From: Nitrosopumilaceae archaeon
GTDB lineage: Archaea > Thermoproteota > Nitrososphaeria > Nitrososphaerales > Nitrosopumilaceae
Assembly: GCA_965209085.1 (NCBI GenBank)
Contig: OZ242376.1
Span: 576,001-640,000 of the forward strand
Direction of reading: 5' to 3'
Length of the DNA: 64,000 bases
The notes under the pieces were generated by a model. It saw nothing but the letters and a program-made list of their open reading frames with translations, did no database searches and was not told the origin of the DNA. The translations under genes and the position numbers were made by a program. Shown here piece after piece: positions 16,001 through 43,000 of the stretch (position 1 is the stretch's first letter; each line of letters begins with the position of its first letter).

Positions 16001-19000
16001 CGTATACAACGAGGATAATTCCACATTTAGAACATTTACAAATACAGACCTGACTGGATCAAATATTGCCATAGATACAACTGCACCTAGTATAACATTA
16101 AACGGTGTAAACAACACCATTGTTAACATGAATCAACCATATGAGGATCCAAACGCCACAGCATCTGATGCATCATATGCAACAGGTAGCGTACAGGTAT
16201 CCGGAGCTGGCAATGTAGATACTACAACAAATGCCATCTATACTCTCACTTATACTGCACCTGATGATCCTGCAGGTAATATTGGACCGGTCATAACACG
16301 GACTGTTACAGTACAGGATGCACCGCCAATAAATGTTAACTCGCTGAGTATTGCAAGCAATTCTGGAAATAATTATGCAAATGCGGGCAAAACTGTAACC
16401 GTCACTCTTGTAACGGATGGTACAAATCTTAACAGCCTTACTGGAGTCTTGCTTGGCAGATCATTTACAAATACTACAACCGGGGGCTCTGCTACGTTTA
16501 CCGGTACAGTCCAGTCCGGCGATGATGGAAATGCCACGTTTTCAATTACTGCTACAAACTCTAGTGGCAACAAAATCACATTAACAAATAGTGATATCAC
16601 AGATAGCTCATCTATCATAATAGATACGATAAAACCCGTAATTAACCTGACTGGAGGCAATGATTTTGTACTCCAGGGTGAGACATATCAGGATCCGGGC
16701 ACAACTGTATCAGATGATGGCAATGCATCATATGCCGGTCCAGTATCTGCCTCATCAATTGACACCTCTACACTTGGCGCAAAAACCATTACCTATACTG
16801 GCACAGCGGATGCGGCAGGTAACGAGCCGAATCAAATAACTAGAATAGTTACAGTATTGGCAAAACCTCTGGGTATAAATTCGCTGACAATTGAATCAAA
16901 TAACAATGTAAACACCTCTTTTGCCAAAGACGGGGATGTGATTACAGTAACGCTTGCTGTAAACGGCACGATTGGTAATGTTACAGGAGTAATTGCAGGC
17001 AATTCTGCTACATACACTGTCACCGGCAATAATGCATCAGCTACGGTAACAGTTGATGGAGCCTTTACTGATACTGCCAGCGTCACATTTTCGATTACCG
17101 TATACAACGAGGATAATTCCACATTTAGAACATTTACAAATACAGACCTGACTGGATCAAATATTGCCATAGATACAACTGCACCTAGTATAACATTAAA
17201 CGGTGCAAACAACACCATTGTTATCATGAATCAACCATATGAGGATCCAAACGCCACAGCATCTGATACATCATATGCAACAGGTAGCGTACAGGTATCC
17301 GGAGCTGGCAATGTAAATACCGCAATAGTTGGCAATTATACCCTCACCTATACTGCACCTGATGATTATGCAGGCAATACAGGACCTGTCATAACACGGA
17401 CTGTTACAGTACAGGATGCACCGCCAATAAATGTTAACTCGCTGAGTATTGCAAGCAATTCTGGAAATAATTATGCAAATGCGGGCAAAACCGTAACCGT
17501 CACTCTTGTAACGGATGGTACAAATCTTAACAGCCTTACTGGAGTCTTGCTTGACAGATCATTTACAAATACTACAACCGGGGGCTCTGCTACGTTTGCC
17601 GGTACAGTCCAGTCCGGCGATGATGGAAATGCCACGTTTTCAATTACCGTGACAAACTCTAGTGGCAGCCAAATTTCAATAACAAATGCAAACATCACAG
17701 ACGGCTCATATGTCACAATAGATACGATAAAACCCGTAATTGCCCTGACTGGAGGCAATGATTCTGTACTCCAGGGTGAGACATATCAGGATCCGGGCAC
17801 AACTGTATCAGATATTAACAATGCATCATATGCAGGTCCCGTATCTGCCACATCAATAAACACCTCTACACTTGGCGCAAAAACCATTACCTATACTGGC
17901 ACAGCAGATGCGGCAGGTAACGAACCGAATCAAATAACTAGAACAGTTACAGTATTGGCAAAACCGCTGGGTCTGAATTCGCTGACAATTGAATCAAACA
18001 ACAATGTAAACACCTCTTTTGCCAAAGACGGGGATGTGATTACAGTAACGCTTGTTGCAAACGGCACGATTGGTAATGCTACAGGGGTAATTGCAGGCAA
18101 TTCTGCTACATACACTGTCACCGGCAATAATGCATCAGATACGGTAACAGTTGATGGAACCTTTGCCGATACTGCCAGCGTCACATTTTCGATTACCGCA
18201 TTCAACGAGGATAATTCCACATTTAGAACATTTACAAATACAAATCTGACCGGATCAAATATTGCCATAGATACAACTGCACCTAGTATAACATTAAACG
18301 GTGCAAACAACACCATTGTTATCATGAATCAACCATATGAGGATCCAAACGCCACAGCATCTGATACATCATATGCAACAGGTAGCGTACAGGTATCCGG
18401 AGCCGGCAATGTAAATACTGCACTAGTTGGCAATTATACCCTCACCTATACTGCACCTGATGATTATGCAGGCAATACAGGACCTGTCATAACACGGACT
18501 GTTACAGTACAGGATGCACCGCCAATAAATGTTAACTCGCTGAGTATTGCAAGCAATTCTGGAAATAATTATGCAAATGCGGGCAAAACCGTAACTGTCA
18601 CTCTTGTAACGGATGGCACAAATCTTAACAGCCTTACTGGAGTCTTGCTTGACAGATCATTTACAAATACTACAACCGGAGGCTCTGCTACGTTTGCCGG
18701 TACAGTCCAGTCCGGCGATGATGGAAATGCCACGTTTTCAATTACCGTGACAAACTCTAGTGGCAGCCAAATTTCAATAACAAATGCAAACATCACAGAC
18801 GGCTCATATGTCACAATAGATACGATAAAACCCGTAATTGCCCTGACTGGAGGCAATGATTCTGTACTCCAGGGTGAGACATATCAGGATCCGGGCACAA
18901 CTGTATCAGATATTAACAATGCATCATATGCAGGTCCCGTATCTGCCACATCAATAAACACCACGATACTTGGCCCACAAAACATTACCTATACTGGCAC

Positions 19001-22000
19001 AGCAGATGCGGCAGGTAACGAGCCGAATCAAATAACTAGAATAGTTACAGTATTTGCAAAACCTCTGGGCATAAATTCGCTGACAATTGAATCAAACAAC
19101 AATGTAAACACCTCTTTTACCAAAGACGGGGATGTGATTACAGTAACGCTTGTTGCAAACGGCACGATTGGTAATGCTACAGGAGTAATTGCAGGAGTAA
19201 TTGCAAGCAATTCTGTTACATATGCTGTCACCAATAATACTGTATTGGCCACGGTAACAGTTGATGGAACCTTTGCCGATACTGCCAGCGTCACATTTTC
19301 GATTACCGTATACAACGAGGATAATTCCACATTTAGAACATTTACAAATGCAAATCTGACTGGATCAAATATTGCCATAGATACAACTGCACCTAGCATA
19401 ACATTAAACGGTGCAAACAACACCTTCGTTGTAACAAATTCCTCCTATACGGATCTAGGTGCCACGGCAACTGATATATCATATGCAACAGGTAGCGTAC
19501 AAGTATCCGGAGTCGGCACTGTAAATATTGCAACATCTGGCAACTATATTCTCACTTATACTGCACCTGATGATCCTGCAGGAAATCCAGGTAACACCAT
19601 ATCCCGTACTGTGATTGTTTCGGATGCGGCGCCGTTGGTGCTTGTAACTAAATTTATCCACTCTCCGAGTGGAACACTAACCCGTGGTACTGATTTTCCA
19701 ACCAATATACCTCCTACTACCATCAATCTGTTTGAAACAAGTGGTAAAACATATGCCTTGTTAGCGGAAGGATCTGGCGGAGCATGGATTATTGCAGACG
19801 TTACAAATCCTGCATCACCTAGTGTAGTATTTAATAATGCCAGTTTCACACCTACATACAAAACATCCATCTTTACAATAGATAATACCCAATATGCCAT
19901 AGCTGCAGGCGGTATCGGCATTACTAGTATACTCGACATCAGCTCACCTGCATCCCCATCTGTTATTACAACACTTGTAAACGGCACAGACTATCCGCGA
20001 CTATACAATGCACAAAGCGTTACAACCGTAACAATAGGTGCCTCAACTTTTGCACTGTTTGCATCTGGCAATCCTACAAACGGCGTCCAAATCATAGACG
20101 TTACAAACCCCCACAGCCCATCACATGTATCCTACCTTACCGATGATACGGATGGTTATTTGGAACTAGGAGGCGCATTTGACATTACCACTGTAATAAT
20201 CGGTGCATCAGTTTATGCCTTGGTGGCATCCAATAATGATGATGGCGTCCAAATCATAGACATTACAGACCCATACAACCCATCAAATACATCAAGTGTA
20301 ACAGATGGAATGGATGGCTATGATAAACTAGATGGTGCATATGGCATCACCACCGTAACTGTAGGATCATCAGTTTATGCCTTGGTGGCATCCTTTAATG
20401 ATGATAGCATCCAAATCATAAACATTACAGACCCATACAACCCATCAAATGCATCAAGCGTAACAGATGGAATAGATGGCTATGATGAACTAGATGGTCC
20501 ATATAGGATCACCACCGTAACTGTAGGATCATCAGTTTATGCTTTGACAGTATCCATTATTGATGATGGCGTCCAAATCATAGACATTACAGACCCATAC
20601 AACCCCCAACCTGCATATTCTCCCACGGATAATACTGGCGGTTATGTAAATCTGGATAACCCAAGAGATGTCATTACTACAACCATAAATGGCACAACAT
20701 ATGCATTTATAGCCTCAAATAATGACGGTCTCCAAATCATAAAACTGGAATCTGCACCACTGACTATATCTAGTAGCAATACAAATCCAACATATGCCAA
20801 AACAGGTGATACACTCACCGTACAATTTACCGTAAATGACACAATCTCATCTAATTCAAGCCAAATACTGGGATTAACCCCCACCGTATCCATAAGCGGT
20901 GCCGATTTTAGTGCAGCAATAACTGTACCCTCTGTACAAACAGAATCGTATGCAACCTTTGCAATACAGGTTTCAAACACTAATGGTGCAACCCTGTCTG
21001 TAACAGAGAGTGGCATATCGCAGAGTAGCAATATATTCATCGATACAATCGCACCTGAAATATCCCTCATCGGCAACTCATCTTTTACGGTAATTTTGAA
21101 TTCAACTGATCCGTTCATCCCTGGTGCAATCATAACTGATGGGGACCCAAACTATCCGGATACCTTTACTATCACAATCAACGGCACTTTGGACACTGGC
21201 GTGATAAACTCTACAGTAACGTATACGTATACTGCAGCTACTGATGGGGCAGGAAATGCCGGTTCTAGTGTAACACGAACAGTTACAGTGGTTGAGGCTG
21301 AACCAATTACAATCAACTCGCTGACTATTGCAAGCTCATCAGGCACCAATTATGCAAATGCAGGCAAAACCATAACTGTCACACTTGCCACTGATGGTTC
21401 GGATCTTGGCAACTTTACTGGAACACTGCTTGGTAGATCATTTACAAATACTACAAACGGCGGCTCTGCTGAATTTACTGCCACTGTCGTATCCGGCGAT
21501 GATGGAGATGCCGCGTTTTCAATTACCGTGACAAACTCTAGTGGCAACCAAATTTCAATAACAAATGCAAACATCACAGACAGCTCATCTGTCACAATAG
21601 ATACGATAAAACCCGTAATTGTTTTGACTGGCGGTGTAGGTTCTGTATTCCAGGGTGAGACATATCAGGATCCGGGCACAACTGTATCAGATGGTAACAA
21701 TACATCATATGCCGGTTCTGTATCTGCCTCATCAATTAACACCTCTACACTTGGTGTAAAAATCATTACCTATACTGGCACAGCAGATGCGGCAGGTAAC
21801 GAGCCGGATCAAATAACTAGAATAGTTACAGTATTGGCAAAACCTCTGGGTATAAATTCGCTGACAATTGAATCAAACAACAATGTAAACACCTCTTTTG
21901 CCAAAGACGGGGATGTGATTACAGTAACGCTTGTTGCAAACGGCACGATTAGTAATGTTACAGGGGTAATTGCAGGCAATTCTGCTACATACACTGTCAC

Positions 22001-25000
22001 CGGCAATAATGCATCAGTTATGGTAACAGTTGATGGAACCTTTGCCGATACTGCCAGCGTCACATTTTCGATTACCGTATACAACGAGGATAATTCCACA
22101 TTTAGAGTATTTACAAATACAGACCTGACTGGATCAAATATTGCCATAGATACAACTGCACCTAGTATAACATTAAACGGTGCAAACAACACCATTGTTA
22201 ACATGAATCAACCATATGAGGATCCAAACGCCACAGCATCTGATGCATCATATGCAACAGGTAGCGTACAGGTATCCGGAGCCGGCAATGTAGATACTAC
22301 AACAAATGCCATCTATACTCTCACTTATACTGCACCGGATGATCCTGCAGGTAATATTGGACCGGTCATAACACGGACTGTTACAGTACATGATGCACCG
22401 CCAATAAATGTTAACTCGCTGAGTATTGCAAGCAATTCTGGAAATAATTATGCAAATGAGAGCAAAACTGTAACCGTCACTCTTGTAACGGATGGTACAA
22501 ATCTTAACAGCCTTACTGGAGTCTTGCTTGGCAGATCATTTACAAATACTACAACCGGAGGCTCTGCTATGTTTACCGGTACAGTCCAGTCCGGCGATGA
22601 CGGAAATGCCACGTTTTCAATTACTGCTACAAACTCTAGTGGCAGCCAAATTTCAATAACAAATGCTGACATCACAGATGGCTCATATGTCACAATAGAT
22701 ACGATAAAACCCGTAATTAACCTGACTGGAGGCAATGATTTTGTACTCCAGGGTGAGACATATCAGGATCCGGGCACAACTGTATCAGATGATGGCAATG
22801 CATCATATGCCGGTCCAGTATCTGCCTCATCAATTGACACCTCTACACTTGGCGCAAAAACCATTACCTATACTGGCACAGCGGATGCGGCAGGTAACGA
22901 GCCGAATCAAATAACTAGAATAGTTACAGTATTGGCAAAACCTTTGGGTATAAATTCGCTGATAATTGAATCAAACAACAGTGTAAACACCTCTTTTGCC
23001 AAAGACGGGGATGTGATTACAGTAACGCTTGCTGTAAACGGCACGATTGGTAATGTTACAGGAGTAATTGCAGGCAATTCTGCTACATACAATGTCACCG
23101 GCAATAATGCATCAGCTACGGTAACAGTTGATGGAGCCTTTACTGATACTGTCAGCGTCACATTTTCGATTACCGCATACAACGAGGATAATTCCACATT
23201 TAGAACATTTACAAATACAGACCTGACTGGATCAAATATTGCCATAGATACAACTGCACCTAGTATAACATTAAACGGTGCAAACAATACTCTAGTTTTC
23301 ACAAATTCCACATATGTGGATAAAAACGCCACAGCATCTGATGCATCATATGCAACAGGTAGCGTACAGGTATCCGGAGCCGGCACTGTAAATACTGCAA
23401 CAGCTGGCAATTATACCCTCACTTATACTGCACCTGTTGATCCTGCAGGTAATATTGGACCTGTCATAACACGGACTGTTACAGTACAGAATGCACCGCC
23501 AATAAATGTTAACTCGCTGAGTATTGCAAGCAATTCTGGAAATAATTATGCAAATGCGGGCAAAACTGTAACCGTCACTCTTGTAACGGATGGTACAAAT
23601 CTTAACAGCCTTACTGGAGTCTTGCTTGGCAGATCATTTACAAATACTACAACCGGGGGCTCTGCTACGTTTACCGGTACAGTCCAGTCCGGCGATGATG
23701 GAAATGCCACGTTTTCAATTACTGCTACAAACTCTAGTGGCAACAAAATCACATTAACAAATAGTGATATCACAGATAGCTCATCTATCATAATAGATAC
23801 GATAAAACCCGTAATTAACCTGACTGGAGGCAATGATTCTGTACTCCAGGGTGAGACATATCAGGATCCGGGCACAACTGTATCAGATGATGGCAATGCA
23901 TCATATGCCGGTCCAGTATCTGCCTCATCAATTGACACCTCTACACTTGGCACAAAAACCATTACCTATACTGGCACAGCAGATGCGGCAGGTAACGAGC
24001 CGAATCAAATAACTAGAATAGTTACAGTATTTGCAAAACCTCTGGGTATAAATTCGCTGACAATTGAATCAAACAACAATGTAAACACCTCTTTTGCCAA
24101 AGACGGGGATGTGATTACAGTAACGCTTGTTGCAAACGGCACGATTGGTAATGCTACAGGGGTAATTGCAGGCAATTCTGCTACATACACTGTTACCGGC
24201 AATAATGCATCAGCTACGGTAACAGTTGATGGAACCTTTACTGATACTGCCAGCGTCACATTTTCGATTACCGTATACAACGAGGATAATTCCACATTTA
24301 GAACATTTACAAATACAAATCTGACCGGATCAAATATTGCCATAGATACAACTGCACCTAGTATAACATTAAACGGTGCAAACAACACCATTGTTATCAT
24401 GAATCAACCATATGAGGATCCAAACGCCACAGCATCTGATACATCATATGCAACAGGTAGCGTACAGGTATCCGGAGCTGGCAATGTAAATACTGCACTA
24501 GTTGGCAATTATACCCTCACCTATACTGCACCTGATGATTATGCAGGCAATACAGGACCTGTCATAACACGGACTGTTACAGTACAGGATGCACCGCCAA
24601 TAAATGTTAACTCGCTGAGTATTGCAAGCAATTCTGGAAATAATTATGCAAATGCGGGCAAAACCGTAACTGTCACTCTTGTAACGGATGGCACAAATCT
24701 TAACAGCCTTACTGGAGTCTTGCTTGACAGATCATTTACAAATACTACAACCGGAGGCTCTGCTACGTTTGCCGGTACAGTCCAGTCCGGCGATGATGGA
24801 AATGCCACGTTTTCAATTACCGTGACAAACTCTAGTGGCAGCCAAATTTCAATAACAAATGCAAACATCACAGACGGCTCATATGTCACAATAGATACGA
24901 TAAAACCCGTAATTGCCCTGACTGGAGGCAATGATTCTGTACTCCAGGGTGAGACATATCAGGATCCGGGCACAACTGTATCAGATATTAACAATGCATC

Positions 25001-28000
25001 ATATGCAGGTCCCGTATCTGCCACATCAATAAACACCACGATACTTGGCCCACAAAACATTACCTATACTGGCACAGCAGATGCGGCAGGTAACGAGCCG
25101 AATCAAATAACTAGAATAGTTACAGTATTTGCAAAACCTCTGGGTATAAATTCGCTGACAATTGAATCAAACAACAATGTAAACACCTCTTTTACCAAAG
25201 ACGGGGATGTGATTACAGTAACGCTTGTTGCAAACGGCACGATTGGTAATGCTACAGGAGTAATTGCAGGAGTAATTGCAAGCAATTCTGTTACATATGC
25301 TGTCACCAATAATACTGTATTGGCCACGGTAACAGTTGATGGAACCTTTGCCGATACTGCCAGCGTCACATTTTCGATTACCGCATTCAACGAGGATAAT
25401 TCCACATTTAGAACATTTACAAATGCAAATCTGACTGGATCAAATATTGCCATAGATACAACTGCACCTAGCATAACATTAAACGGTGCAAACAACACCT
25501 TCGTTGTAACAAATTCCTCCTATACGGATCTAGGTGCCACGGCAACTGATATATCATATGCAACAGGTAGCGTACAAGTATCCGGAGTCGGCACTGTAAA
25601 TATTGCAACATCTGGCAACTATATTCTCACTTATACTGCACCTGATGATCCTGCAGGAAATCCAGGTAACACCATATCCCGTACTGTGATTGTTTCGGAT
25701 GCGGCGCCGTTGGTGCTTGTAACTAAATTTATCCACTCTCCGAGTGGAACACTAACCCGTGGTACTGATTTTCCAACCAATATACCTCCTACTACCATCA
25801 ATCTGTTTGAAACAAGTGGTAAAACATATGCCTTGTTAGCGGAAGGATCTGGCGGAGCATGGATTATTGCAGACGTTACAAATCCTGCATCACCTAGTGT
25901 AGTATTTAATAATGCCAGTTTCACACCTACATACAAAACATCCATCTTTACAATAGATAATACCCAATATGCCATAGCTGCAGGCGGTATCGGCATTACT
26001 AGTATACTCGACATCAGCTCACCTGCATCCCCATCTGTTATTACAACACTTGTAAACGGCACAGACTATCCGCGACTATACAATGCACAAAGCGTTACAA
26101 CCGTAACAATAGGTGCCTCAACTTTTGCACTGTTTGCATCTGGCAATCCTACAAACGGCGTCCAAATCATAGACGTTACAAACCCCCACAGCCCATCACA
26201 TGTATCCTACCTTACCGATGATACGGATGGTTATTTGGAACTAGGAGGCGCATTTGACATTACCACTGTAATAATCGGTGCATCAGTTTATGCCTTGGTG
26301 GCATCCAATAATGATGATGGCGTCCAAATCATAGACATTACAGACCCATACAACCCATCAAATACATCAAGTGTAACAGATGGAATGGATGGCTATGATA
26401 AACTAGATGGTGCATATGGCATCACCACCGTAACTGTAGGATCATCAGTTTATGCCTTGGTGGCATCCTTTAATGATGATAGCATCCAAATCATAAACAT
26501 TACAGACCCATACAACCCATCAAATGCATCAAGCGTAACAGATGGAATAGATGGCTATGATGAACTAGATGGTCCATATAGGATCACCACCGTAACTGTA
26601 GGATCATCAGTTTATGCTTTGACAGTATCCATTATTGATGATGGCGTCCAAATCATAGACATTACAGACCCATACAACCCCCAACCTGCATATTCTCCCA
26701 CGGATAATACTGGCGGTTATGTAAATCTGGATAACCCAAGAGATGTCATTACTACAACCATAAATGGCACAACATATGCATTTATAGCCTCAAATAATGA
26801 CGGTCTCCAAATCATAAAACTGGAATCTGCACCACTGACTATATCTAGTAGCAATACAAATCCAACATATGCCAAAACAGGTGATACACTCACCGTACAA
26901 TTTACCGTAAATGACACAATCTCATCTAATTCAAGCCAAATACTGGGATTAACCCCCACCGTATCCATAAGCGGTGCCGATTTTAGTGCAGCAATAACTG
27001 TACCCTCTGTACAAACAGAATCGTATGCAACCTTTGCAATACAGGTTTCAAACACTAATGGTGCAACCCTGTCTGTAACAGAGAGTGGCATATCGCAGAG
27101 TAGCAATATATTCATCGATACAATCGCACCTGAAATATCCCTCATCGGCAACTCATCTTTTACGGTAATTTTGAATTCAACTGATCCGTTCATCCCTGGT
27201 GCAATCATAACTGATGGGGACCCAAACTATCCGGATACCTTTACTATCACAATCAACGGCACTTTGGACACTGGCGTGATAAACTCTACAGTAACGTATA
27301 CGTATACTGCAGCTACTGATGGGGCAGGAAATGCCGGTTCTAGTGTAACACGAACAGTTACAGTGGTTGAGGCTGAACCAATTACAATCAACTCGCTGAC
27401 TATTGCAAGCTCATCAGGCACCAATTATGCAAATGCAGGCAAAACCATAACTGTCACACTTGCCACTGATGGTTCGGATCTTGGCAACTTTACTGGAACA
27501 CTGCTTGGTAGATCATTTACAAATACTACAAACGGCGGCTCTGCTGAATTTACTGCCACTGTCGTATCCGGCGATGATGGAGATGCCGCGTTTTCAATTA
27601 CCGTGACAAACTCTAGTGGCAACCAAATTTCAATAACAAATGCAAACATCACAGACAGCTCATCTGTCACAATAGATACGATAAAACCCGTAATTGTTTT
27701 GACTGGCGGTGTAGGTTCTGTATTCCAGGGTGAGACATATCAGGATCCGGGCACAACTGTATCAGATGGTAACAATACATCATATGCCGGTTCTGTATCT
27801 GCCTCATCAATTAACACCTCTACACTTGGTGTAAAAATCATTACCTATACTGGCACAGCAGATGCGGCAGGTAACGAGCCGGATCAAATAACTAGAATAG
27901 TTACAGTATTGGCAAAACCTCTGGGTATAAATTCGCTGACAATTGAATCAAACAACAATGTAAACACCTCTTTTGCCAAAGACGGGGATGTGATTACAGT

Positions 28001-31000
28001 AACGCTTGTTGCAAACGGCACGATTGATTATGCAATAGGAACAATTGCCAGCAATTCTGCTACATACACTGTCACCGGCAATAATGCATCAGTTATGGTA
28101 ACAGTTGATGGAACCTTTACCGATACTGCCAGCGTCACATTTTCGATTACCGTATACAACGAGGATAATTCCACATTTAGAGTATTTACAAATACAGACC
28201 TGACTGGATCAAATATTGCCATAGATACAACTGCACCTAGTATAACATTAAACGGTGCAAACAACACCATTGTTAACATGAATCAACCATATGAGGATCC
28301 AAACGCCACAGCATCTGATGCATCATATGCAACAGGTAGCGTACAGGTATCCGGAGCCGGCAATGTAGATACTACAACAAATGCCATCTATACTCTCACT
28401 TATACTGCACCTGATGATCCTGCAGGTAATATTGGACCGGTCATAACACGGACTGTTACAGTGCATGATGCACCGCCAATAAATGTTAACTCGCTGAGTA
28501 TTGCAAGCAATTCTGGAAATAATTATGCAAATGAGAGCAAAACTGTAACCGTCACTCTTGTAACGGATGGTACAAATCTTAACAGCCTTACTGGAGTCTT
28601 GCTTGGCAGATCATTTACAAATACTACAACCGGGGGCTCTGCTACGTTTACCGGTACAGTCCAGTCCGGCGATGACGGAAATGCCACGTTTTCAATTACT
28701 GCTACAAACTCTAGTGGCAGCCAAATTTCAATAACAAATGCTGACATCACAGATGGCTCATATGTCACAATAGATACGATAAAACCCGTAATTAACCTGA
28801 CTGGAGGCAATGATTTTGTACTCCAGGGTGAGACATATCAGGATCCGGGCACAACTGTATCAGATGATGGCAATGCATCATATGCCGGTCCAGTATCTGC
28901 CTCATCAATTGACACCTCTACACTTGGCGCAAAAACCATTACCTATACTGGCACAGCGGATGCGGCAGGTAACGAGCCGAATCAAATAACTAGAATAGTT
29001 ACAGTATTGGCAAAACCTTTGGGTATAAATTCGCTGACAATTGAATCAAATAACAATGTAAACACCTCTTTTGCCAAAGACGGGGATGTGATTACAGTAA
29101 CGCTTGCTGTAAACGGCACGATTGGTAATGTTACAGGAGTAATTGCAGGCAATTCTGCTACATACAATGTCACTGGCAATAATGCATCAGCTACGGTAAC
29201 AGTTGATGGAGCCTTTACTGATACTGTCAGCGTCACATTTTCGATTACCGCATACAACGAGGATAATTCCACATTTAGAACATTTACAAATACAGACCTG
29301 ACTGGATCAAATATTGCCATAGATACAACTGCACCTAGTATAACATTAAACGGTGCAAACAATACTCTAGTTTTCACAAATTCCACATATGTGGATAAAA
29401 ACGCCACAGCATCTGATGCATCATATGCAACAGGTAGCGTACAGGTATCCGGAGCCGGCACTGTAAATACTGCAACAGCTGGCAATTATACCCTCACTTA
29501 TACTGCACCTGTTGATCCTGCAGGTAATATTGGACCTGTCATAACACGGACTGTTACAGTACAGAATGCACCGCCAATAAATGTTAACTCGCTGAGTATT
29601 GCAAGCAATTCTGGAAATAATTATGCAAATGCGGGCAAAACTGTAACCGTCACTCTTGTAACGGATGGTACAAATCTTAACAGCCTTACTGGAGTCTTGC
29701 TTGGCAGATCATTTACAAATACTACAACCGGGGGCTCTGCTACGTTTACCGGTACAGTCCAGTCCGGCGATGATGGAAATGCCACGTTTTCAATTACTGC
29801 TACAAACTCTAGTGGCAACAAAATCACATTAACAAATAGTGATATCACAGATAGCTCATCTATCATAATAGATACGATAAAACCCGTAATTAACCTGACT
29901 GGAGGCAATGATTCTGTACTCCAGGGTGAGACATATCAGGATCCGGGCACAACTGTATCAGATGATGGCAATGCATCATATGCCGGTCCAGTATCTGCCT
30001 CATCAATTGACACCTCTACACTTGGCACAAAAACCATTACCTATACTGGCACAGCAGATGCGGCAGGTAACGAGCCGAATCAAATAACTAGAATAGTTAC
30101 AGTATTTGCAAAACCTCTGGGTATAAATTCGCTGACAATTGAATCAAACAACAATGTAAACACCTCTTTTGCCAAAGACGGGGATGTGATTACAGTAACG
30201 CTTGTTGCAAACGGCACGATTGGTAATGTTACAGGGGTAATTGTAGGCAATTCTGCTACATACACTGTCACCGGCAATAATGCATCAGCTACGGTAACAG
30301 TTGATGGAACCTTTGCCGATACTGCCAGCGTCACATTTTCGATTAACGCATCCAACGCGGATAATCTTGCATATAAAATATTTACAGATACAAATCTGAC
30401 TGGATCAAATATTGCCATAGATACAACTGCACCTAGTATAACATTAAACGGTGCAAACAACACCATTGTTTTCACAAATTCCACATATGTGGATAAAAAC
30501 GCCACAGCATCTGATACATCATATGCAACAGGTAGCGTACAGGTATCCGGAGTCGGCAATGTAAATATTGCAACATCTGGCAACTATATTCTCACTTATA
30601 CTGCACCTGATGATCCTGCAGGAAATCCAGGTAACACCATATCCCGTACTGTGATTGTTTCGGATGTGGCGCCGTTGATGCTTGAAACTAAATTTATCCA
30701 CTCTCCGAGTGGAACACTAACAAGAGATACTGATTTTGCATTCAATATAATTACTAGAAGCATCAATCTGTTTGAAACAAGTGATAAAACATATGCTTTG
30801 TTAACGCGAGGATCTACCGGAGCATGGATTATTGCAGACGTTACAAATCCTGCATTACCTAGTATAGTATTTAGTAATATCTCTTTCGCATCTGCATACA
30901 AAACATCCATCATTACAATAGATAATACCACATATGCCATAGCTGCAGGTGGTAAAGATTCTACTCGTATAATCGACATCAGCTCACCTGCATCCCCCTC

Positions 31001-34000
31001 TGTTATTGCAACACTTGTAAACGGCACAGACTATCCGCGACTATACAATGCACAAAGCGTTACAACCGTAACAATAGGTGCCTCAACTTTTGCACTGTTT
31101 GCATCGGACCATCCTTCAAACGGCGTCCAAATCATAAACGTTACAAACCCTCACAACCCCTTACCTGTATCACACATCACCGATAATGTGGATGGTTATT
31201 CGAAACTAGCAGGCGCACATGACATCACCACTGTAACAATCGGTACATCAGTTTATGCCTTGGCGGTAGGCTTTTCGGATTCTAGCGTCCAAATCATAAA
31301 CATTACAGACCCATACAACCCATCAAATGCATCAAGCGTAACAGACGGAAATGAAGGCTATGATACACTATATGGTCCAATTAGCATCACCACCGTAACT
31401 GTAGGATCATCCGTTTATGCCTTGGTGGCATCCCTTTATGATGATGGCGTCCAAATCATAAACATTACAGACCCATACAACCCATCAAATGCATCAAGCG
31501 TAACAGACGGAAATGAAGGCTATGATACACTAGATGCTCCATATAGCATCACCACCGTAACTGTAGGATCATCCGTTTATGCCTTGGTGGCATCCCTTTA
31601 TGATGATGGCGTCCAAATCATAAACATTACAGACCCATACAACCCCAAACCTGCATCTTCCATCGTGGATAATACTGGCGGTTATACAAATCTAGAAAAC
31701 CCAAGAGCTGTTATTACTGCAACCATAAATGGCACAACATATGCATTTATAGCCTCAAATGCTGAGGGTCTCCAAATCATAAAACTGGAATCACCACCAC
31801 CGGTTAACATAACTAGCAACAATACAAATCCAGCATATGCAAAAACAGGCGATACACTCACCGTACAATTTACCATAAATGACACAATCTCATCTCATAC
31901 AAGCCAAATACTGGGATTAACCCCTAATGTAGCCCTAGATGGTGCCAATTATAGTGCCACATTAACCGTACCCTCTGTACAAACAGAATCGTATGCAACC
32001 TTTGCCATACAGGTTTCAAACGCTGATGGTGCAACCCTGTCTGTAACAGAGAGTATCATATCGCAGAGCAATAACATATTCATCGATACAATCGCACCTG
32101 AAATATCCCTCATCGGCAACTCATCTTTTACGGTAATTTTGAATTCAACTGATCCGTTCATCCCTGGTGCAATCATAACTGATGGGGACCCAAACTATCC
32201 GAATACCTTTACTATCACAATCAACGGCACTTTGGATACTAGCGTGATAAACTCTACAGTAACGTACACGTATACTGCTGCAGCAGATGGGGCAGGGAAT
32301 GCCGGTTCTAGTGTAACACGAACAGTTACAGTGGTTGAGGCTGAACCAATTACAATCAACTCGCTGACTATTGCAAGCTCGTCAGGCACCAATTATGCAA
32401 ATGCAAACAAAACCATAACCGTCACACTTGCCACTGATGGTTCGGATCTTGGCAACTTTACTGGAACACTGCTTGGCAGATCATTTACAAATACTACAAA
32501 CGGCGGCTCTGCTGAATTTACTGCCACTGTCGTATCCGGCGATGATGGAGATGCCACGTTTTCAATTACCGTGACAAACTCTAGTGGCAGCCAAATTTCA
32601 ATAACAAATGCAAACATCACAGACGGCTCATATGTCACAATAGATACGATAAAACCCGTAATTGCCCTGACTGGAGGCAATGATTCTGTACTCCAGGGTG
32701 AGACATATCAGGATCCGGGCACCATAGTATCAGATAGTAACAATGCATCATATGCCGGTCCAGTATCTGCCTCATCAATTGACACCTCTACACTTGGCGC
32801 AAAAACCATTACCTATACTGGCACAGCAGATGCGGCAGGTAACGAACCGAATCAAATAACTAGAACAGTTACAGTATTGGCAAAACCGCTGGGTCTGAAT
32901 TCGCTGACAATTGAATCAAACAACAATGTAAACACCTCTTTTGCCAAAGACGGGGATGTGATTACAGTAACGCTTGTTGCAAACGGCACGATTGGTAATG
33001 CTACAGGGGTAATTGCAGGCAATTCTGCTACATACACTGTCACCGGCAATAATGCATCAGATACGGTAACAGTTGATGGAACCTTTACTGATACTGCCAG
33101 CGTCACATTTTCGATTACCGTATACAACGAGGATAATTCCACATTTAGAACATTTACAAATACAAATCTGACCGGATCAAATATTGCCATAGATACAACT
33201 GCACCTAGTATAACATTAAACGGTGCAAACAACACCATTGTTATCATGAATCAACCATATGAGGATCCAAACGCCACAGCATCTGATACATCATATGCAA
33301 CAGGTAGCGTACAGGTATCCGGAGCTGGCAATGTAAATACTGCACTAGTTGGCAATTATACCCTCACCTATACTGCACCTGATGATTATGCAGGCAATAC
33401 AGGACCTGTCATAACACGGACTGTTACAGTACAGGATGCACCGCCAATAAATGTTAACTCGCTGAGTATTGCAAGCAATTCTGGAAATAATTATGCAAAT
33501 GCGGGCAAAACCGTAACTGTCACTCTTGTAACGGATGGCACAAATCTTAACAGCCTTACTGGAGTCTTGCTTGACAGATCATTTACAAATACTACAACCG
33601 GAGGCTCTGCTACGTTTGCCGGTACAGTCCAGTCCGGCGATGATGGAAATGCCACGTTTTCAATTACCGTGACAAACTCTAGTGGCAGCCAAATTTCAAT
33701 AACAAATGCAAACATCACAGACGGCTCATATGTCACAATAGATACGATAAAACCCGTAATTGCCCTGACTGGAGGCAATGATTCTGTACTCCAGGGTGAG
33801 ACATATCAGGATCCGGGCACAACTGTATCAGATATTAACAATGCATCATATGCAGGTCCCGTATCTGCCACATCAATAAACACCACGATACTTGGCCCAC
33901 AAAACATTACCTATACTGGCACAGCAGATGCGGCAGGTAACGAGCCGAATCAAATAACTAGAATAGTTACAGTATTTGCAAAACCTCTGGGTATAAATTC

Positions 34001-37000
34001 GCTGACAATTGAATCAAACAACAATGTAAACACCTCTTTTACCAAAGACGGGGATGTGATTACAGTAACGCTTGTTGCAAACGGCACGATTGGTAATGCT
34101 ACAGGAGTAATTGCAGGAGTAATTGCAAGCAATTCTGTTACATATGCTGTCACCAATAATACTGTATTGGCCACGGTAACAGTTGATGGAACCTTTGCCG
34201 ATACTGCCAGCGTCACATTTTCGATTACCGCATTCAACGAGGATAATTCCACATTTAGAACATTTACAAATGCAAATCTGACTGGATCAAATATTGCCAT
34301 AGATACAACTGCACCTAGCATAACATTAAACGGTGCAAACAACACCTTCGTTGTAACAAATTCCTCCTATACGGATCTAGGTGCCACGGCAACTGATATA
34401 TCATATGCAACAGGTAGCGTACAAGTATCCGGAGTCGGCACTGTAAATATTGCAACATCTGGCAACTATATTCTCACTTATACTGCACCTGATGATCCTG
34501 CAGGAAATCCAGGTAACACCATATCCCGTACTGTGATTGTTTCGGATGCGGCGCCGTTGGTGCTTGTAACTAAATTTATCCACTCTCCGAGTGGAACACT
34601 AACCCGTGGTACTGATTTTCCAACCAATATACCTCCTACTACCATCAATCTGTTTGAAACAAGTGGTAAAACATATGCCTTGTTAGCGGAAGGATCTGGC
34701 GGAGCATGGATTATTGCAGACGTTACAAATCCTGCATCACCTAGTGTAGTATTTAATAATGCCAGTTTCACACCTACATACAAAACATCCATCTTTACAA
34801 TAGATAATACCCAATATGCCATAGCTGCAGGCGGTATCGGCATTACTAGTATACTCGACATCAGCTCACCTGCATCCCCATCTGTTATTACAACACTTGT
34901 AAACGGCACAGACTATCCGCGACTATACAATGCACAAAGCGTTACAACCGTAACAATAGGTGCCTCAACTTTTGCACTGTTTGCATCTGGCAATCCTACA
35001 AACGGCGTCCAAATCATAGACGTTACAAACCCCCACAGCCCATCACATGTATCCTACCTTACCGATGATACGGATGGTTATTTGGAACTAGGAGGCGCAT
35101 TTGACATTACCACTGTAATAATCGGTGCATCAGTTTATGCCTTGGTGGCATCCAATAATGATGATGGCGTCCAAATCATAGACATTACAGACCCATACAA
35201 CCCATCAAATACATCAAGTGTAACAGATGGAATGGATGGCTATGATAAACTAGATGGTGCATATGGCATCACCACCGTAACTGTAGGATCATCAGTTTAT
35301 GCCTTGGTGGCATCCTTTAATGATGATAGCATCCAAATCATAAACATTACAGACCCATACAACCCATCAAATGCATCAAGCGTAACAGATGGAATAGATG
35401 GCTATGATGAACTAGATGGTCCATATAGGATCACCACCGTAACTGTAGGATCATCAGTTTATGCTTTGACAGTATCCATTATTGATGATGGCGTCCAAAT
35501 CATAGACATTACAGACCCATACAACCCCCAACCTGCATATTCTCCCACGGATAATACTGGCGGTTATGTAAATCTGGATAACCCAAGAGATGTCATTACT
35601 ACAACCATAAATGGCACAACATATGCATTTATAGCCTCAAATAATGACGGTCTCCAAATCATAAAACTGGAATCTGCACCACTGACTATATCTAGTAGCA
35701 ATACAAATCCAACATATGCCAAAACAGGTGATACACTCACCGTACAATTTACCGTAAATGACACAATCTCATCTAATTCAAGCCAAATACTGGGATTAAC
35801 CCCCACCGTATCCATAAGCGGTGCCGATTTTAGTGCAGCAATAACTGTACCCTCTGTACAAACAGAATCGTATGCAACCTTTGCAATACAGGTTTCAAAC
35901 ACTAATGGTGCAACCCTGTCTGTAACAGAGAGTGGCATATCGCAGAGTAGCAATATATTCATCGATACAATCGCACCTGAAATATCCCTCATCGGCAACT
36001 CATCTTTTACGGTAATTTTGAATTCAACTGATCCGTTCATCCCTGGTGCAATCATAACTGATGGGGACCCAAACTATCCGGATACCTTTACTATCACAAT
36101 CAACGGCACTTTGGACACTGGCGTGATAAACTCTACAGTAACGTATACGTATACTGCAGCTACTGATGGGGCAGGAAATGCCGGTTCTAGTGTAACACGA
36201 ACAGTTACAGTGGTTGAGGCTGAACCAATTACAATCAACTCGCTGACTATTGCAAGCTCATCAGGCACCAATTATGCAAATGCAGGCAAAACCATAACTG
36301 TCACACTTGCCACTGATGGTTCGGATCTTGGCAACTTTACTGGAACACTGCTTGGTAGATCATTTACAAATACTACAAACGGCGGCTCTGCTGAATTTAC
36401 TGCCACTGTCGTATCCGGCGATGATGGAGATGCCGCGTTTTCAATTACCGTGACAAACTCTAGTGGCAACCAAATTTCAATAACAAATGCAAACATCACA
36501 GACAGCTCATCTGTCACAATAGATACGATAAAACCCGTAATTGTTTTGACTGGCGGTGTAGGTTCTGTATTCCAGGGTGAGACATATCAGGATCCGGGCA
36601 CAACTGTATCAGATGGTAACAATACATCATATGCCGGTTCTGTATCTGCCTCATCAATTAACACCTCTACACTTGGTGTAAAAATCATTACCTATACTGG
36701 CACAGCAGATGCGGCAGGTAACGAGCCGGATCAAATAACTAGAATAGTTACAGTATTGGCAAAACCTCTGGGTATAAATTCGCTGACAATTGAATCAAAC
36801 AACAATGTAAACACCTCTTTTGCCAAAGACGGGGATGTGATTACAGTAACGCTTGTTGCAAACGGCACGATTGATTATGCAATAGGAACAATTGCCAGCA
36901 ATTCTGCTACATACACTGTCACCGGCAATAATGCATCAGTTATGGTAACAGTTGATGGAACCTTTACCGATACTGCCAGCGTCACATTTTCGATTACCGT

Positions 37001-40000
37001 ATACAACGAGGATAATTCCACATTTAGAGTATTTACAAATACAGACCTGACTGGATCAAATATTGCCATAGATACAACTGCACCTAGTATAACATTAAAC
37101 GGTGCAAACAACACCATTGTTAACATGAATCAACCATATGAGGATCCAAACGCCACAGCATCTGATGCATCATATGCAACAGGTAGCGTACAGGTATCCG
37201 GAGCCGGCAATGTAGATACTACAACAAATGCCATCTATACTCTCACTTATACTGCACCTGATGATCCTGCAGGTAATATTGGACCGGTCATAACACGGAC
37301 TGTTACAGTACATGATGCACCGCCAATAAATGTTAACTCGCTGAGTATTGCAAGCAATTCTGGAAATAATTATGCAAATGAGAGCAAAACTGTAACCGTC
37401 ACTCTTGTAACGGATGGTACAAATCTTAACAGCCTTACTGGAGTCTTGCTTGGCAGATCATTTACAAATACTACAACCGGGGGCTCTGCTACGTTTACCG
37501 GTACAGTCCAGTCCGGCGATGACGGAAATGCCACGTTTTCAATTACTGCTACAAACTCTAGTGGCAGCCAAATTTCAATAACAAATGCTGACATCACAGA
37601 TGGCTCATATGTCACAATAGATACGATAAAACCCGTAATTAACCTGACTGGAGGCAATGATTTTGTACTCCAGGGTGAGACATATCAGGATCCGGGCACA
37701 ACTGTATCAGATGATGGCAATGCATCATATGCCGGTCCAGTATCTGCCTCATCAATTGACACCTCTACACTTGGCGCAAAAACCATTACCTATACTGGCA
37801 CAGCGGATGCGGCAGGTAACGAGCCGAATCAAATAACTAGAATAGTTACAGTATTGGCAAAACCTTTGGGTATAAATTCGCTGACAATTGAATCAAATAA
37901 CAATGTAAACACCTCTTTTGCCAAAGACGGGGATGTGATTACAGTAACGCTTGCTGTAAACGGCACGATTGGTAATGTTACAGGAGTAATTGCAGGCAAT
38001 TCTGCTACATACAATGTCACTGGCAATAATGCATCAGCTACGGTAACAGTTGATGGAGCCTTTACTGATACTGTCAGCGTCACATTTTCGATTACCGCAT
38101 ACAACGAGGATAATTCCACATTTAGAACATTTACAAATACAGACCTGACTGGATCAAATATTGCCATAGATACAACTGCACCTAGTATAACATTAAACGG
38201 TGCAAACAATACTCTAGTTTTCACAAATTCCACATATGTGGATAAAAACGCCACAGCATCTGATGCATCATATGCAACAGGTAGCGTACAGGTATCCGGA
38301 GCCGGCACTGTAAATACTGCAACAGCTGGCAATTATACCCTCACTTATACTGCACCTGTTGATCCTGCAGGTAATATTGGACCTGTCATAACACGGACTG
38401 TTACAGTACAGAATGCACCGCCAATAAATGTTAACTCGCTGAGTATTGCAAGCAATTCTGGAAATAATTATGCAAATGCGGGCAAAACTGTAACCGTCAC
38501 TCTTGTAACGGATGGTACAAATCTTAACAGCCTTACTGGAGTCTTGCTTGGCAGATCATTTACAAATACTACAACCGGGGGCTCTGCTACGTTTACCGGT
38601 ACAGTCCAGTCCGGCGATGATGGAAATGCCACGTTTTCAATTACTGCTACAAACTCTAGTGGCAACAAAATCACATTAACAAATAGTGATATCACAGATA
38701 GCTCATCTATCATAATAGATACGATAAAACCCGTAATTAACCTGACTGGAGGCAATGATTCTGTACTCCAGGGTGAGACATATCCGGATCCGGGCACAAC
38801 TGTATCAGATGATGGCAATGCATCATATGCCGGTCCAGTATCTGCCTCATCAATTGACACCTCTACACTTGGCGCAAAAACCATTACCTATACTGGCACA
38901 GCAGATGCGGCAGGTAACGAGCCGGATCAAATAACTAGAATAGTTACAGTATTTGCAAAACCTCTGGGTATAAATTCGCTAACAATTGAATCAAATAACA
39001 ATGTAAACACCTCTTTTGCCAAAGACGGGGATGTGATTACAGTAACGCTTGTTGCAAACGGCACGATTGGTAATGCTACAGGGGTAATTGCAGGCAATTC
39101 TGCTACATACACTGTCACCGGCAATAATGCATCAGCTACGGTAACAGTTGATGGAACCTTTACTGATACTGCCAGCGTCACATTTTCGATTACCGTATAC
39201 AACGAGGATAATTCCACATTTAGAACATTTACAAATACAAATCTGACCGGATCAAATATTGCCATAGATACAACTGCACCTAGTATAACATTAAACGGTG
39301 CAAACAACACCATTGTTATCATGAATCAACCATATGAGGATCCAAACGCCACAGCATCTGATACATCATATGCAACAGGTAGCGTACAGGTATCCGGAGC
39401 TGGCAATGTAAATACTGCACTAGTTGGCAATTATACCCTCACCTATACTGCACCTGATGATTATGCAGGCAATACAGGACCTGTCATAACACGGACTGTT
39501 ACAGTACAGGATGCACCGCCAATAAATGTTAACTCGCTGAGTATTGCAAGCAATTCTGGAAATAATTATGCAAATGCGGGCAAAACCGTAACTGTCACTC
39601 TTGTAACGGATGGCACAAATCTTAACAGCCTTACTGGAGTCTTGCTTGACAGATCATTTACAAATACTACAACCGGAGGCTCTGCTACGTTTGCCGGTAC
39701 AGTCCAGTCCGGCGATGATGGAAATGCCACGTTTTCAATTACCGTGACAAACTCTAGTGGCAGCCAAATTTCAATAACAAATGCAAACATCACAGACGGC
39801 TCATATGTCACAATAGATACGATAAAACCCGTAATTGCCCTGACTGGAGGCAATGATTCTGTACTCCAGGGTGAGACATATCAGGATCCGGGCACAACTG
39901 TATCAGATATTAACAATGCATCATATGCAGGTCCCGTATCTGCCACATCAATAAACACCACGATACTTGGCCCACAAAACATTACCTATACTGGCACAGC

Positions 40001-43000
40001 AGATGCGGCAGGTAACGAGCCGAATCAAATAACTAGAATAGTTACAGTATTTGCAAAACCTCTGGGTATAAATTCGCTGACAATTGAATCAAACAACAAT
40101 GTAAACACCTCTTTTACCAAAGACGGGGATGTGATTACAGTAACGCTTGTTGCAAACGGCACGATTGGTAATGCTACAGGAGTAATTGCAAGCAATTCTG
40201 TTACATATGCTGTCACCAATAATACTGTATTGGCCACGGTAACAGTTGATGGAACCTTTGCCGATACTGCCAGCGTCACATTTTCGATTACCGCATTCAA
40301 CGAGGATAATTCCACATTTAGAACATTTACAAATGCAAATCTGACTGGATCAAATATTGCCATAGATACAACTGCACCTAGCATAACATTAAACGGTGCA
40401 AACAACACCTTCGTTGTAACAAATTCCTCCTATACGGATCTAGGTGCCACGGCAACTGATATATCATATGCAACAGGTAGCGTACAAGTATCCGGAGTCG
40501 GCACTGTAAATATTGCAACATCTGGCAACTATATTCTCACTTATACTGCACCTGATGATCCTGCAGGAAATCCAGGTAACACCATATCCCGTACTGTGAT
40601 TGTTTCGGATGCGGCGCCGTTGGTGCTTGTAACTAAATTTATCCACTCTCCGAGTGGAACACTAACCCGTGGTACTGATTTTCCAACCAATATACCTCCT
40701 ACTACCATCAATCTGTTTGAAACAAGTGGTAAAACATATGCCTTGTTAGCGGAAGGATCTGGCGGAGCATGGATTATTGCAGACGTTACAAATCCTGCAT
40801 CACCTAGTGTAGTATTTAATAATGCCAGTTTCACACCTACATACAAAACATCCATCTTTACAATAGATAATACCCAATATGCCATAGCTGCAGGCGGTAT
40901 CGGCATTACTAGTATACTCGACATCAGCTCACCTGCATCCCCATCTGTTATTACAACACTTGTAAACGGCACAGACTATCCGCGACTATACAATGCACAA
41001 AGCGTTACAACCGTAACAATAGGTGCCTCAACTTTTGCACTGTTTGCATCTGGCAATCCTACAAACGGCGTCCAAATCATAGACGTTACAAACCCCCACA
41101 GCCCATCACATGTATCCTACCTTACCGATGATACGGATGGTTATTTGGAACTAGGAGGCGCATTTGACATTACCACTGTAATAATCGGTGCATCAGTTTA
41201 TGCCTTGGTGGCATCCAATAATGATGATGGCGTCCAAATCATAGACATTACAGACCCATACAACCCATCAAATACATCAAGTGTAACAGATGGAATGGAT
41301 GGCTATGATAAACTAGATGGTGCATATGGCATCACCACCGTAACTGTAGGATCATCAGTTTATGCCTTGGTGGCATCCTTTAATGATGATAGCATCCAAA
41401 TCATAAACATTACAGACCCATACAACCCATCAAATGCATCAAGCGTAACAGATGGAATAGATGGCTATGATGAACTAGATGGTCCATATAGGATCACCAC
41501 CGTAACTGTAGGATCATCAGTTTATGCTTTGACAGTATCCATTATTGATGATGGCGTCCAAATCATAGACATTACAGACCCATACAACCCCCAACCTGCA
41601 TATTCTCCCACGGATAATACTGGCGGTTATGTAAATCTGGATAACCCAAGAGATGTCATTACTACAACCATAAATGGCACAACATATGCATTTATAGCCT
41701 CAAATAATGACGGTCTCCAAATCATAAAACTGGAATCTGCACCACTGACTATATCTAGTAGCAATACAAATCCAACATATGCCAAAACAGGTGATACACT
41801 CACCGTACAATTTACCGTAAATGACACAATCTCATCTAATTCAAGCCAAATACTGGGATTAACCCCCACCGTATCCATAAGCGGTGCCGATTTTAGTGCA
41901 GCAATAACTGTACCCTCTGTACAAACAGAATCGTATGCAACCTTTGCAATACAGGTTTCAAACACTAATGGTGCAACCCTGTCTGTAACAGAGAGTGGCA
42001 TATCGCAGAGTAGCAATATATTCATCGATACAATCGCACCTGAAATATCCCTCATCGGCAACTCATCTTTTACGGTAATTTTGAATTCAACTGATCCGTT
42101 CATCCCTGGTGCAATCATAACTGATGGGGACCCAAACTATCCGGATACCTTTACTATCACAATCAACGGCACTTTGGACACTGGCGTGATAAACTCTACA
42201 GTAACGTATACGTATACTGCAGCTACTGATGGGGCAGGAAATGCCGGTTCTAGTGTAACACGAACAGTTACAGTGGTTGAGGCTGAACCAATTACAATCA
42301 ACTCGCTGACTATTGCAAGCTCATCAGGCACCAATTATGCAAATGCAGGCAAAACCATAACTGTCACACTTGCCACTGATGGTTCGGATCTTGGCAACTT
42401 TACTGGAACACTGCTTGGTAGATCATTTACAAATACTACAAACGGCGGCTCTGCTGAATTTACTGCCACTGTCGTATCCGGCGATGATGGAGATGCCGCG
42501 TTTTCAATTACCGTGACAAACTCTAGTGGCAACCAAATTTCAATAACAAATGCAAACATCACAGACAGCTCATCTGTCACAATAGATACGATAAAACCCG
42601 TAATTGTTTTGACTGGCGGTGTAGGTTCTGTATTCCAGGGTGAGACATATCAGGATCCGGGCACAACTGTATCAGATGGTAACAATACATCATATGCCGG
42701 TTCTGTATCTGCCTCATCAATTAACACCTCTACACTTGGTGTAAAAATCATTACCTATACTGGCACAGCAGATGCGGCAGGTAACGAGCCGGATCAAATA
42801 ACTAGAATAGTTACAGTATTGGCAAAACCTCTGGGTATAAATTCGCTGACAATTGAATCAAACAACAATGTAAACACCTCTTTTGCCAAAGACGGGGATG
42901 TGATTACAGTAACGCTTGTTGCAAACGGCACGATTGATTATGCAATAGGAACAATTGCCAGCAATTCTGCTACATACACTGTCACCGGCAATAATGCATC

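Follow-up and report, generated by a model that had tools for sequence, protein, structure and literature searches.

The stretch of Nitrosopumilaceae DNA analysed here, called the window below (64,000 nucleotides (nt) of contig OZ242376.1, positions 576,001 to 640,000), carries a giant open reading frame (ORF) that encodes a series of beta-propellers, including two closely related types, P2 and P3. Our data indicate that P2 and P3 are alleles of a propeller module that has multiplied in this genome, that one face of the propeller is diversifying by an excess of amino acid replacements, and that the variants are reshuffled by exchange among copies. The resulting set of faces would serve as a repertoire of ligand-binding surfaces, and we give this reading as a whole a probability of roughly 0.65. 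The new element is the setting, giant extracellular proteins of an archaeon, in which one propeller face is hypervariable and paralogues exchange sequence; the mode itself is already known from fungi.

P2 and P3 are both in frame with the giant ORF and align without a gap over 1116 nt each. Their equal length had been noted in a first reading of the letters without database searches (the sequence-only reading), and all nine pairs of loop motifs that it had listed are present in the translations where it had placed them. The two propellers differ at 136 of 1116 nt (87.8% identity) and at 85 of 372 residues, and the nucleotide differences fall 57, 47 and 32 times at the first, second and third codon position. 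As claimed for the amino acid changes, the differences are clustered: 29 pairs of adjacent residues differ where 19.1 are expected (P = 0.0037), and the nucleotide differences have an index of dispersion of 2.00 compared with 0.86 (0 of 10,000 permutations). The identical stretch that had been given as about 95 bp at 31011-31105 exists, and its real length is 97 nt (Table 1); when the differences were permuted, a run as long occurred in 0 of 10,000 trials (mean 41.6). We considered this run as a tract of gene conversion, but silent changes are not significantly scarce in codons 112-144 (Poisson P = 0.078), and the run is mostly due to the conserved loop between blades 2 and 3 together with conserved strands. 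The three propeller types P1, P2 and P3 implied by the sequence-only reading hold, although not their number, because the ORF has P1, five propellers of the P2 type and two of P3. From window position 19635 to 49466 a tandem super-repeat of about 14.9 kb contains the order P2-P2-P3 with immunoglobulin-like (Ig-like) spacers twice, at 99.3-100% identity and with an offset that shifts from 14,922 to 14,910, and it accounts for the second copy of P3. To judge by its sequence, the super-repeat could be either a very recent duplication or the product of ongoing homogenisation, and collapse or expansion by the assembler is also possible.

AlphaFold2 was used to model P2 and P3 on the basis of 20 aligned paralogues from the same genome. 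Both models contain 28 strands, whose positions nearly coincide, arranged as seven blades of four strands in the order A-B-C-D, and strand D of blade 7 is the N-terminal strand (13-17 in P2, 9-16 in P3), which closes the ring. Both models have the features of the seven-bladed beta-propeller fold, and at least 500 propeller matches were obtained in the PDB. The best Foldseek match of P2 in the PDB was the EPTP propeller of LGI1 (5y2z_B; TM-score 0.74 by query and 0.84 by target, E = 5.7e-16, 13% identity). The agreement of two confident models confirms the conserved framework described earlier. The near-identity of the strand DNA that had been claimed along with it was too strong, as 38 of the 200 strand residues differ.

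In propellers with four-stranded blades, one face (called top here) carries the D-A and B-C loops, and the opposite one (bottom) carries the A-B and C-D loops. The partition into loops and strands was fixed from the structure model with DSSP before any rates were calculated, and not from variability. Between P2 and P3, 41 of 103 residues differ in the top loops (40%), compared with 4 of 56 in the bottom loops (7%) and 38 of 200 in the strands (19%, mostly toward the strand ends); in the N-terminal 12 residues, two differ. Fisher's exact test separates the top loops from the bottom loops (p = 6e-6) and from the strands (p = 0.0002), and so the substitutions are not spread evenly over the structure. 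Apart from the loops, a recurrent switch between D and N at the end of strand C (QIIDIT vs QIINIT) creates N-x-T sequons, of which P2 has 6 and P3 has 10. By this switch, a glycan coat could change separately from the loops.

By the Nei-Gojobori method, the whole domain has a rate of replacement substitution (dN) of 0.147 and a rate of silent substitution (dS) of 0.093 between P2 and P3, a ratio of 1.58. The ratio dN/dS is 2.55 in the top loops, 0.43 in the bottom loops and 1.22 in the strands, and dS is 0.12, 0.075 and 0.09, respectively. Pairwise maximum likelihood (ML) estimates under GY94-F3x4 gave 2.76-2.80 for the top loops (likelihood ratio test (LRT) against 1, p about 0.01), 0.41 for the bottom loops and 1.33 for the strands. 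As a control, dN/dS was calculated for 1835 codons of the Ig-like flanks in these two cassettes; it is 0.70, below 1 (p = 0.001), at a similar dS. When blades 5 and 6 of P3, which are homogenised with each other, were left out (codons 217-324), dN/dS of the top loops climbed to 3.73 (p = 0.004), which rules out this homogenisation as the source of the signal.

P2 and P3 belong to a larger family in the same genome. A tblastn search of the genome with P2 found about 38 propeller matches in eight stop-to-stop frames of 2,337-19,889 aa, the longest of which contains the giant ORF of the window. Among them are 12 distinct close alleles, 86-99% identical in nucleotides and almost gap-free, in five giant genes; these are P2, P3 and ten others in four other giant genes. 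The sequence-only reading had suggested looking for further alleles in metagenomic reads; ten were present in the organism's own genome, and none that was new appeared among the variants listed from public reads. The sister of P3 is E2 (93% identity in nucleotides), in a gene about 0.9 Mb away, and the sisters of P2 are C1, D1 and D2 (96%). The divergence of P2 and P3 therefore did not occur at their present positions, as the sisters of both are in other genes.

Over five pairs of sister alleles, dN/dS is 2.28 in the top loops (p = 0.0002), 0.30 in the bottom loops (p = 0.002, below 1) and 1.16 in the strands (non-significant). When each codon was counted once over these pairs, the top loops had 122 codons with a replacement and 14 with silent changes only, against an expected 3.5:1 (P = 0.0002), and the bottom loops had 14:14. 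In all 66 pairs of alleles, dN exceeded dS in the top loops of 64 and in the bottom loops of nine. The ratio in the top loops is therefore above the neutral value both between P2 and P3 and in the wider family, and the diversifying selection proposed earlier is supported. Parsimony on the ML tree of the 12 alleles assigned 58% of the replacement changes to 52 of the 372 sites; 32 of these 52 are in D-A or B-C loops and none in A-B or C-D loops, and most of the others flank top loops. In the same alignment 202 sites are invariant, and the ratio for the middles of the strands is 0.30. The hypervariable spots, about 4-8 positions per blade, repeat from blade to blade, two to three positions past the 'ALVAS' strand and at positions 3, 4, 8 and 10-14 of the D-A loop, and they are rich in E, R, H, N and F. 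In 13 of the 14 top loops, the 12 alleles have between 6 and 10 different sequences. The sole conserved loop of the variable face is VNGTDYPRLYN (window 31017-31049, P3 residues 115-125), with two sequences in the 12 alleles; possibly it plugs the structure or is a constant element of a putative binding site.

The alleles have a mosaic composition. Their pairwise homoplasy index (PHI) was 0.431, compared with 0.519 ± 0.008 in permutations (as low in 0 of 1000), trees built from the three thirds of the domain disagree, and the nearest relative of P3 switches along the domain among E2, D3, E1, B2 and D5. Blades 5 and 6 of P3 have been homogenised with each other (Table 1), and the same two blades agree at 135-151 of 162 nt in the ten other alleles scored (E2 is gapped there). 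Homology with the other giant genes usually covers the propeller and some 540 nt after it, which makes a module of about 1.74 kb, and extends over 4.3 kb at the E2 locus; a domain of about 180 aa after the propeller accompanies it in most of the other giant genes. The 14-mers specific to P3 are unique or common to close alleles, apart from a few located in conserved parts, and so the loops were not imported from distant paralogues. The nearness of dS in the top loops to that of the strands and bottom loops leads to the same result. Import of loop patches from distant paralogues was ruled out by this donor search together with the barely raised dS of the top loops.

Among 31 genomes (our own and 30 relatives), the domain was present in four, and alleles more than 75% identical to P2 were found solely in our own; a relative of the same genus has propellers 49-55% identical. 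A search of 1.84 billion representative proteins gave 3302 matches at E ≤ 0.001 and 671 at E ≤ 1e-30, many of them with several propellers. Named genomes with relatives of the domain are mostly Nitrosopumilus, Cenarchaeum and other metagenome-assembled genomes (MAGs) of Nitrosopumilaceae among the 78 loci listed, at least 18 of which are in one genome. A few bacterial MAGs among the loci listed match the propeller at 29-51% identity. These include L037, L038, L046, L054, L060, L066 and L069, which are 35-48% identical to P2, several of them on very short contigs, and the MAGs are labelled Synechococcus, Gammaproteobacteria, Chloroflexota, Alphaproteobacteria and candidate-phyla bacteria. The bacterial loci could be due to inter-domain transfer or to mis-binned archaeal contigs. 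Rates in other genomes were obtained from 11 pairs of paralogues among 68 usable domains of the 78 loci, with loop classes mapped at about 40% identity, and dN of the top loops exceeded that of the bottom loops in 10 of the 11. In public reads, five runs contain part of P3. Four of them, with contigs of 50-460 nt, had no letters beyond those of our own paralogues in 40 of the 40 variants listed; 68 more variants are present, and the runs neither show nor exclude a new allele or population polymorphism.

Several results weigh against a selected binding face. The enrichment of changes in the D-A and B-C loops agrees with the sequence-only reading, which had placed them largely there, but just 41 of the 85 differences between P2 and P3 are inside these loops as defined by DSSP, and one of the 14 top-face loops (the blade 2-3 loop VNGTDYPRLYN) is invariant between the two. 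The top and bottom faces were assigned from strand topology and not from coordinates. When each codon is counted once, the top loops of P2 and P3 alone give 41 replacement and 6 silent-only codons against an expected 3.4:1, which is marginal (P = 0.07). Two or three bases differ in 19 of the 41 changed top-loop codons; either repeated hits or multi-nucleotide events, which could inflate dN/dS, may underlie these. The strands overall have a dN/dS of about 1.2, and the strand ends adjoining the bottom face reach 2.19, a value based on few silent changes, so variation extends beyond one face, although part of this bottom-side excess is explained by the recurrent D/N switch. Recombination among the alleles violates the single-tree assumption of parsimony and makes the 'sister pairs' less than independent. 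In the other genomes the signal is weaker, with a top-loop dN/dS above 1 in 4 of the 11 pairs.

Relaxed constraint combined with gene conversion might account for this pattern. Redundant copies would drift, loops would tolerate the changes and conversion patches would cluster them, with no selection for diversity. The mosaic structure of the alleles by PHI and the homogenised blades 5-6 of P3 fit this, and the ratios of about 1.2 in the strands and 0.70 in the Ig-like flanks suggest that the gene is loosely constrained overall; the marginal codon count between P2 and P3 and the multi-base codon changes point the same way. However, drift without constraint caps dN/dS at 1, and the top loops reach 2.28-3.73 (LRT p from 0.0002 to 0.01). 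The replacement excess over the five pairs, dS in the top loops close to that of the strands and bottom loops, the donor search, which found almost no source in distant paralogues, and the growth of the signal when the converted blades are removed also argue against it. We therefore regard drift with conversion as rather unlikely.

A further alternative is that the propeller face is recognised by viruses, grazers or competitors and changes to avoid recognition. The selection signal would be the same as for binding, and the selection would still be diversifying, although not toward a repertoire for ligands of the cell itself. The restriction of close alleles to one genome among 31 fits a fast, lineage-specific turnover of surface genes, and the D/N switches that add or remove sequons would also suit such escape. 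In contrast, five P2 and two P3 copies in one protein and 12 coexisting alleles fit a displayed repertoire better than the turnover of a single epitope, and the variants listed from public runs had no letters beyond the paralogues of this genome. We regard escape from recognition as improbable. Targeted hypermutation by a diversity-generating retroelement (DGR) or a similar programmed mechanism can practically be set aside: hypervariable patches on a fixed scaffold do resemble DGR variable regions, but there is no adenine bias (P2 bases at the 136 differing sites are A 41, T 32, C 32 and G 31, with transitions to transversions at 67:69), a search for the reverse transcriptase RVT_1 (PF00078) found none in this 98%-complete genome while it was positive in 3 of 14 control genomes, and the variable sites are distributed over 13 loops in 1.1 kb and not in one short region.

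Diversification of the face by selection and exchange is consequently the reading we prefer. A propeller module with Ig-like spacers, set in a giant surface protein with a PEFG-CTERM signal, has recently spread to at least 12 alleles in five giant genes. Purifying selection keeps the strand cores and the A-B and C-D loops. Replacements outpace silent changes in the D-A and B-C loops together with the strand ends next to them, all of which lie jointly on the top face by topology. New variants arise by ordinary point substitution and are then reshuffled by homologous exchange among paralogous cassettes and between neighbouring blades. The variable top face may be a surface that binds ligands, and the genome may keep a repertoire of binding specificities shown many times over on long stalks. 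The interpretation given in the sequence-only reading is supported by our data; its terms 'binding surface' and 'antibody-like' apply by analogy. More tentatively, the propellers might form a germ-line receptor repertoire, in which a cassette of fixed scaffold is present in at least five giant surface proteins and a face diversified by selection and recombined by gene conversion gives combinatorial recognition of viruses, neighbouring cells or hosts; we consider this rather doubtful. If it were true, the fungal NOD-like receptor (NLR) WD40 system and the variable lymphocyte receptors (VLRs) of lampreys would have an extracellular counterpart in a prokaryote, and this might be general in Nitrosopumilaceae, some genomes of which carry many such propellers. 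Ammonia-oxidising archaea are among the most abundant microbes, and their surface recognition of partners, particles and viruses is almost unstudied. The approximately 50 positions singled out by the signature of selection and the natural alleles P2 and P3 offer a handle for finding a ligand.

The genome is a single contig of 1,693,554 bp with 41.2% G+C and 98% completeness, and it contains a full archaeal amoA, which, together with the mostly Nitrosopumilaceae relatives of the domain in named genomes, identifies the host as an ammonia-oxidising archaeon. The giant protein begins with a hydrophobic N-terminus, continues with Ig-like repeats and propeller cassettes and then a second type of repeat, and ends in PEFG-CTERM. 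In its first 3846 aa, Pfam assigns 13 stretches to PF16403 (Bact_surface_Ig-like; E = 4.5e-103). PEFG-CTERM (TIGR04296), a signal with a PEFG motif, a transmembrane helix and a basic tail, scores 28.4 bits against a cut-off of 25 at residues 368-393 of the final 400 aa, outside the window, which places the protein in this family by score; its processing is predicted. The hydrophobic N-terminus, PEFG-CTERM and the Ig-like domains together predict a location at the cell surface, and the composition (T 16.9%, N 10.4%, S 10.0%) with 4.2 N-x-S/T sequons per 100 aa fits a glycosylated surface protein. From these features, the giant protein is predicted to be an archaeosortase-sorted cell-surface protein.

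The repeats of about 102 aa, with the pattern '...NLTIYSDN...ATINDxLTITITA[ND]E[AT]LK...', occupy the C-terminal quarter of the giant protein and have no credible Pfam family; there were scattered weak matches, four of five barely over the cut-off and with no single stretch passing. No Pfam or NCBIfam family was over the cut-off for the domain after the propeller, nor for the first 1200 aa apart from the Ig-like domains. In the Ig-like region, the pentapeptide LGLNS (15 nt; window 11277-11336 and 12417-12446) is repeated in tandem and in frame over a short stretch, and its copy number differs among units, with four copies in the first Ig-like unit, two in the second and one in each later unit. 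The genes upstream of the giant ORF appear archaeal by eye from their translations, and two short ORFs there (2635-3138 and 4209-4703) resemble transposase fragments, also by eye. Stop-to-stop open frames of 1,500 aa or longer number ten in the genome (1,622 to 19,889 aa, together about 65,700 aa); they amount to about 197 kb, or about 12% of the 1.69-Mb genome, and eight of the ten have a propeller match. Archaeal proteins above 10,000 aa are few, according to the part of a preprint on giant genes available to us (10.1101/2023.11.21.568195). Literature searches returned nothing specific on the giant genes or propellers of these archaea.

Table 1. Positions of the propellers and associated features in the window. 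pLDDT, predicted local distance difference test; pTM, predicted TM-score.
Feature	Position	Strand	Remarks
Giant ORF	9963..64000, to window-equivalent 69614	+	19,883 aa; exceeds the 3' end of the window
P1 propeller	13563..14678	+	Divergent paralogue, 48% aa identity to P2
P2 propeller, copy 1	19635..20750	+	Comparison partner for P3; AlphaFold2 pLDDT 93.1, pTM 0.92
P2 propeller, copy 2	25710..26825	+	Same protein as copy 1
P3 propeller, copy 1	30675..31790	+	372 aa, seven blades; AlphaFold2 pLDDT 94.8, pTM 0.93
Run identical in P3 and P2	31009..31105 (= 19969-20065)	+	97 nt; end of strand D2, D-A loop of blades 2-3, strands A3-B3
D/N switch sites	31137-31139, 31299-31301, 31623-31625		P3 codons 155, 209 and 317, and equivalent P2 codons
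P3 blades 5 and 6, mutually homogenised	31323..31646	+	157/162 nt identical
Post-propeller domain	31791..32330	+	About 180 aa; homology to other loci spans 1917-3658 of the cassette query
P2 propeller, copy 3	34557..35672	+	Same protein as copy 1
P2 propeller, copy 4	40620..41735	+	Same protein as copy 1
P3 propeller, copy 2	45585..46700	+	100% identical to P3 copy 1
P2 propeller, copy 5	49467..50582	+	1 aa change, 99.7% identical
Second repeat type	54981..64000	+	Units of about 102 aa

LGI1 EPTP (PDB 5y2z, 5y31) has the same seven-bladed fold and is an extracellular protein-binding propeller. Unlike the archaeal propellers, it is animal and synaptic, single copy and not hypervariable, and the likeness is in the fold and does not imply a shared function; EPTP (PF03736) reached 21.7 and 21.3 bits as whole-protein scores against a cut-off of 21, with no single stretch passing. 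LVIVD blades consist of a hydrophobic strand followed by D-x-T/S-x-P and occur in archaeal and bacterial surface proteins (Adindla et al. 2004, PMC2447325, in the part available to us), and LVIVD domains are noted in sponge-associated Thaumarchaeota in the available part of another paper (PMC7848895). The propeller studied here resembles LVIVD and choice-of-anchor B proteins in being a surface propeller with a hydrophobic strand and D-x-T/S-x-P in its blades. P2 scored 18.3 bits for LVIVD (PF08309; cut-off 20.2) and P3 had no match at E ≤ 0.01; for choice-of-anchor B (TIGR04312), the score was 51.1 bits against a cut-off of 100 (E = 1.2e-13, residues 83-277). The archaeal blades are about 54 aa long, in contrast to the 42 positions of the Pfam LVIVD model. 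By these scores the propeller is a distant relative, and not a member, of the LVIVD and choice-of-anchor B families, and we found no literature report of allele diversification in them. Hypervariable patches on an invariant scaffold are common to the archaeal propellers, DGR proteins and the framework and complementarity-determining regions of antibody or VLR systems. The archaeal propellers differ from DGR proteins in lacking a reverse transcriptase and adenine-directed mutation, and from antibodies and VLRs in that their diversity is germ-line and paralogous with no sign of somatic assembly. No report of such diversification in archaeal surface propellers was found in the literature, in which supplementary gene lists may hold relevant entries.

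The closest known analogue in working is the fungal HNWD repertoire of WD40 repeats. In Podospora anserina, the WD40 repeats of HNWD genes (het-d, het-e) undergo concerted evolution both inside and among ten paralogues, and positive selection acts on four positions of each repeat at the interaction surface (Paoletti et al. 2007, PMC1805685); this comparison relates to the part of that paper available to us. In both systems, the propeller scaffold is kept in paralogues similar in DNA (here 12 alleles, 86-99% identical, in five genes). Exchange occurs within and between genes, as indicated here by PHI, the shifting nearest neighbours and the homogenisation of blades 5 and 6. In each blade, a few positions of the interaction face are under positive selection, for which dN/dS of the top loops is 2.28-3.73 here, with the face assigned from topology only. 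Unlike the fungal proteins, which are intracellular NACHT-WD40 receptors with a variable number of repeats, the archaeal propellers always have seven blades, are extracellular on the Ig-like stalks of giant proteins, and exchange mostly whole cassettes of about 1.74 kb; repeat-induced point mutation is inapplicable to them. No Pfam match to WD40 or NACHT was found in the propellers or in 3846 aa of the giant protein. This, together with the extracellular location and the exchange of whole cassettes, means that the archaeal system is not a member of HNWD. The mode by which fungal immune receptors evolve, with a conserved scaffold, exchange between paralogues and selection on one face, would thus extend to extracellular proteins of archaea.

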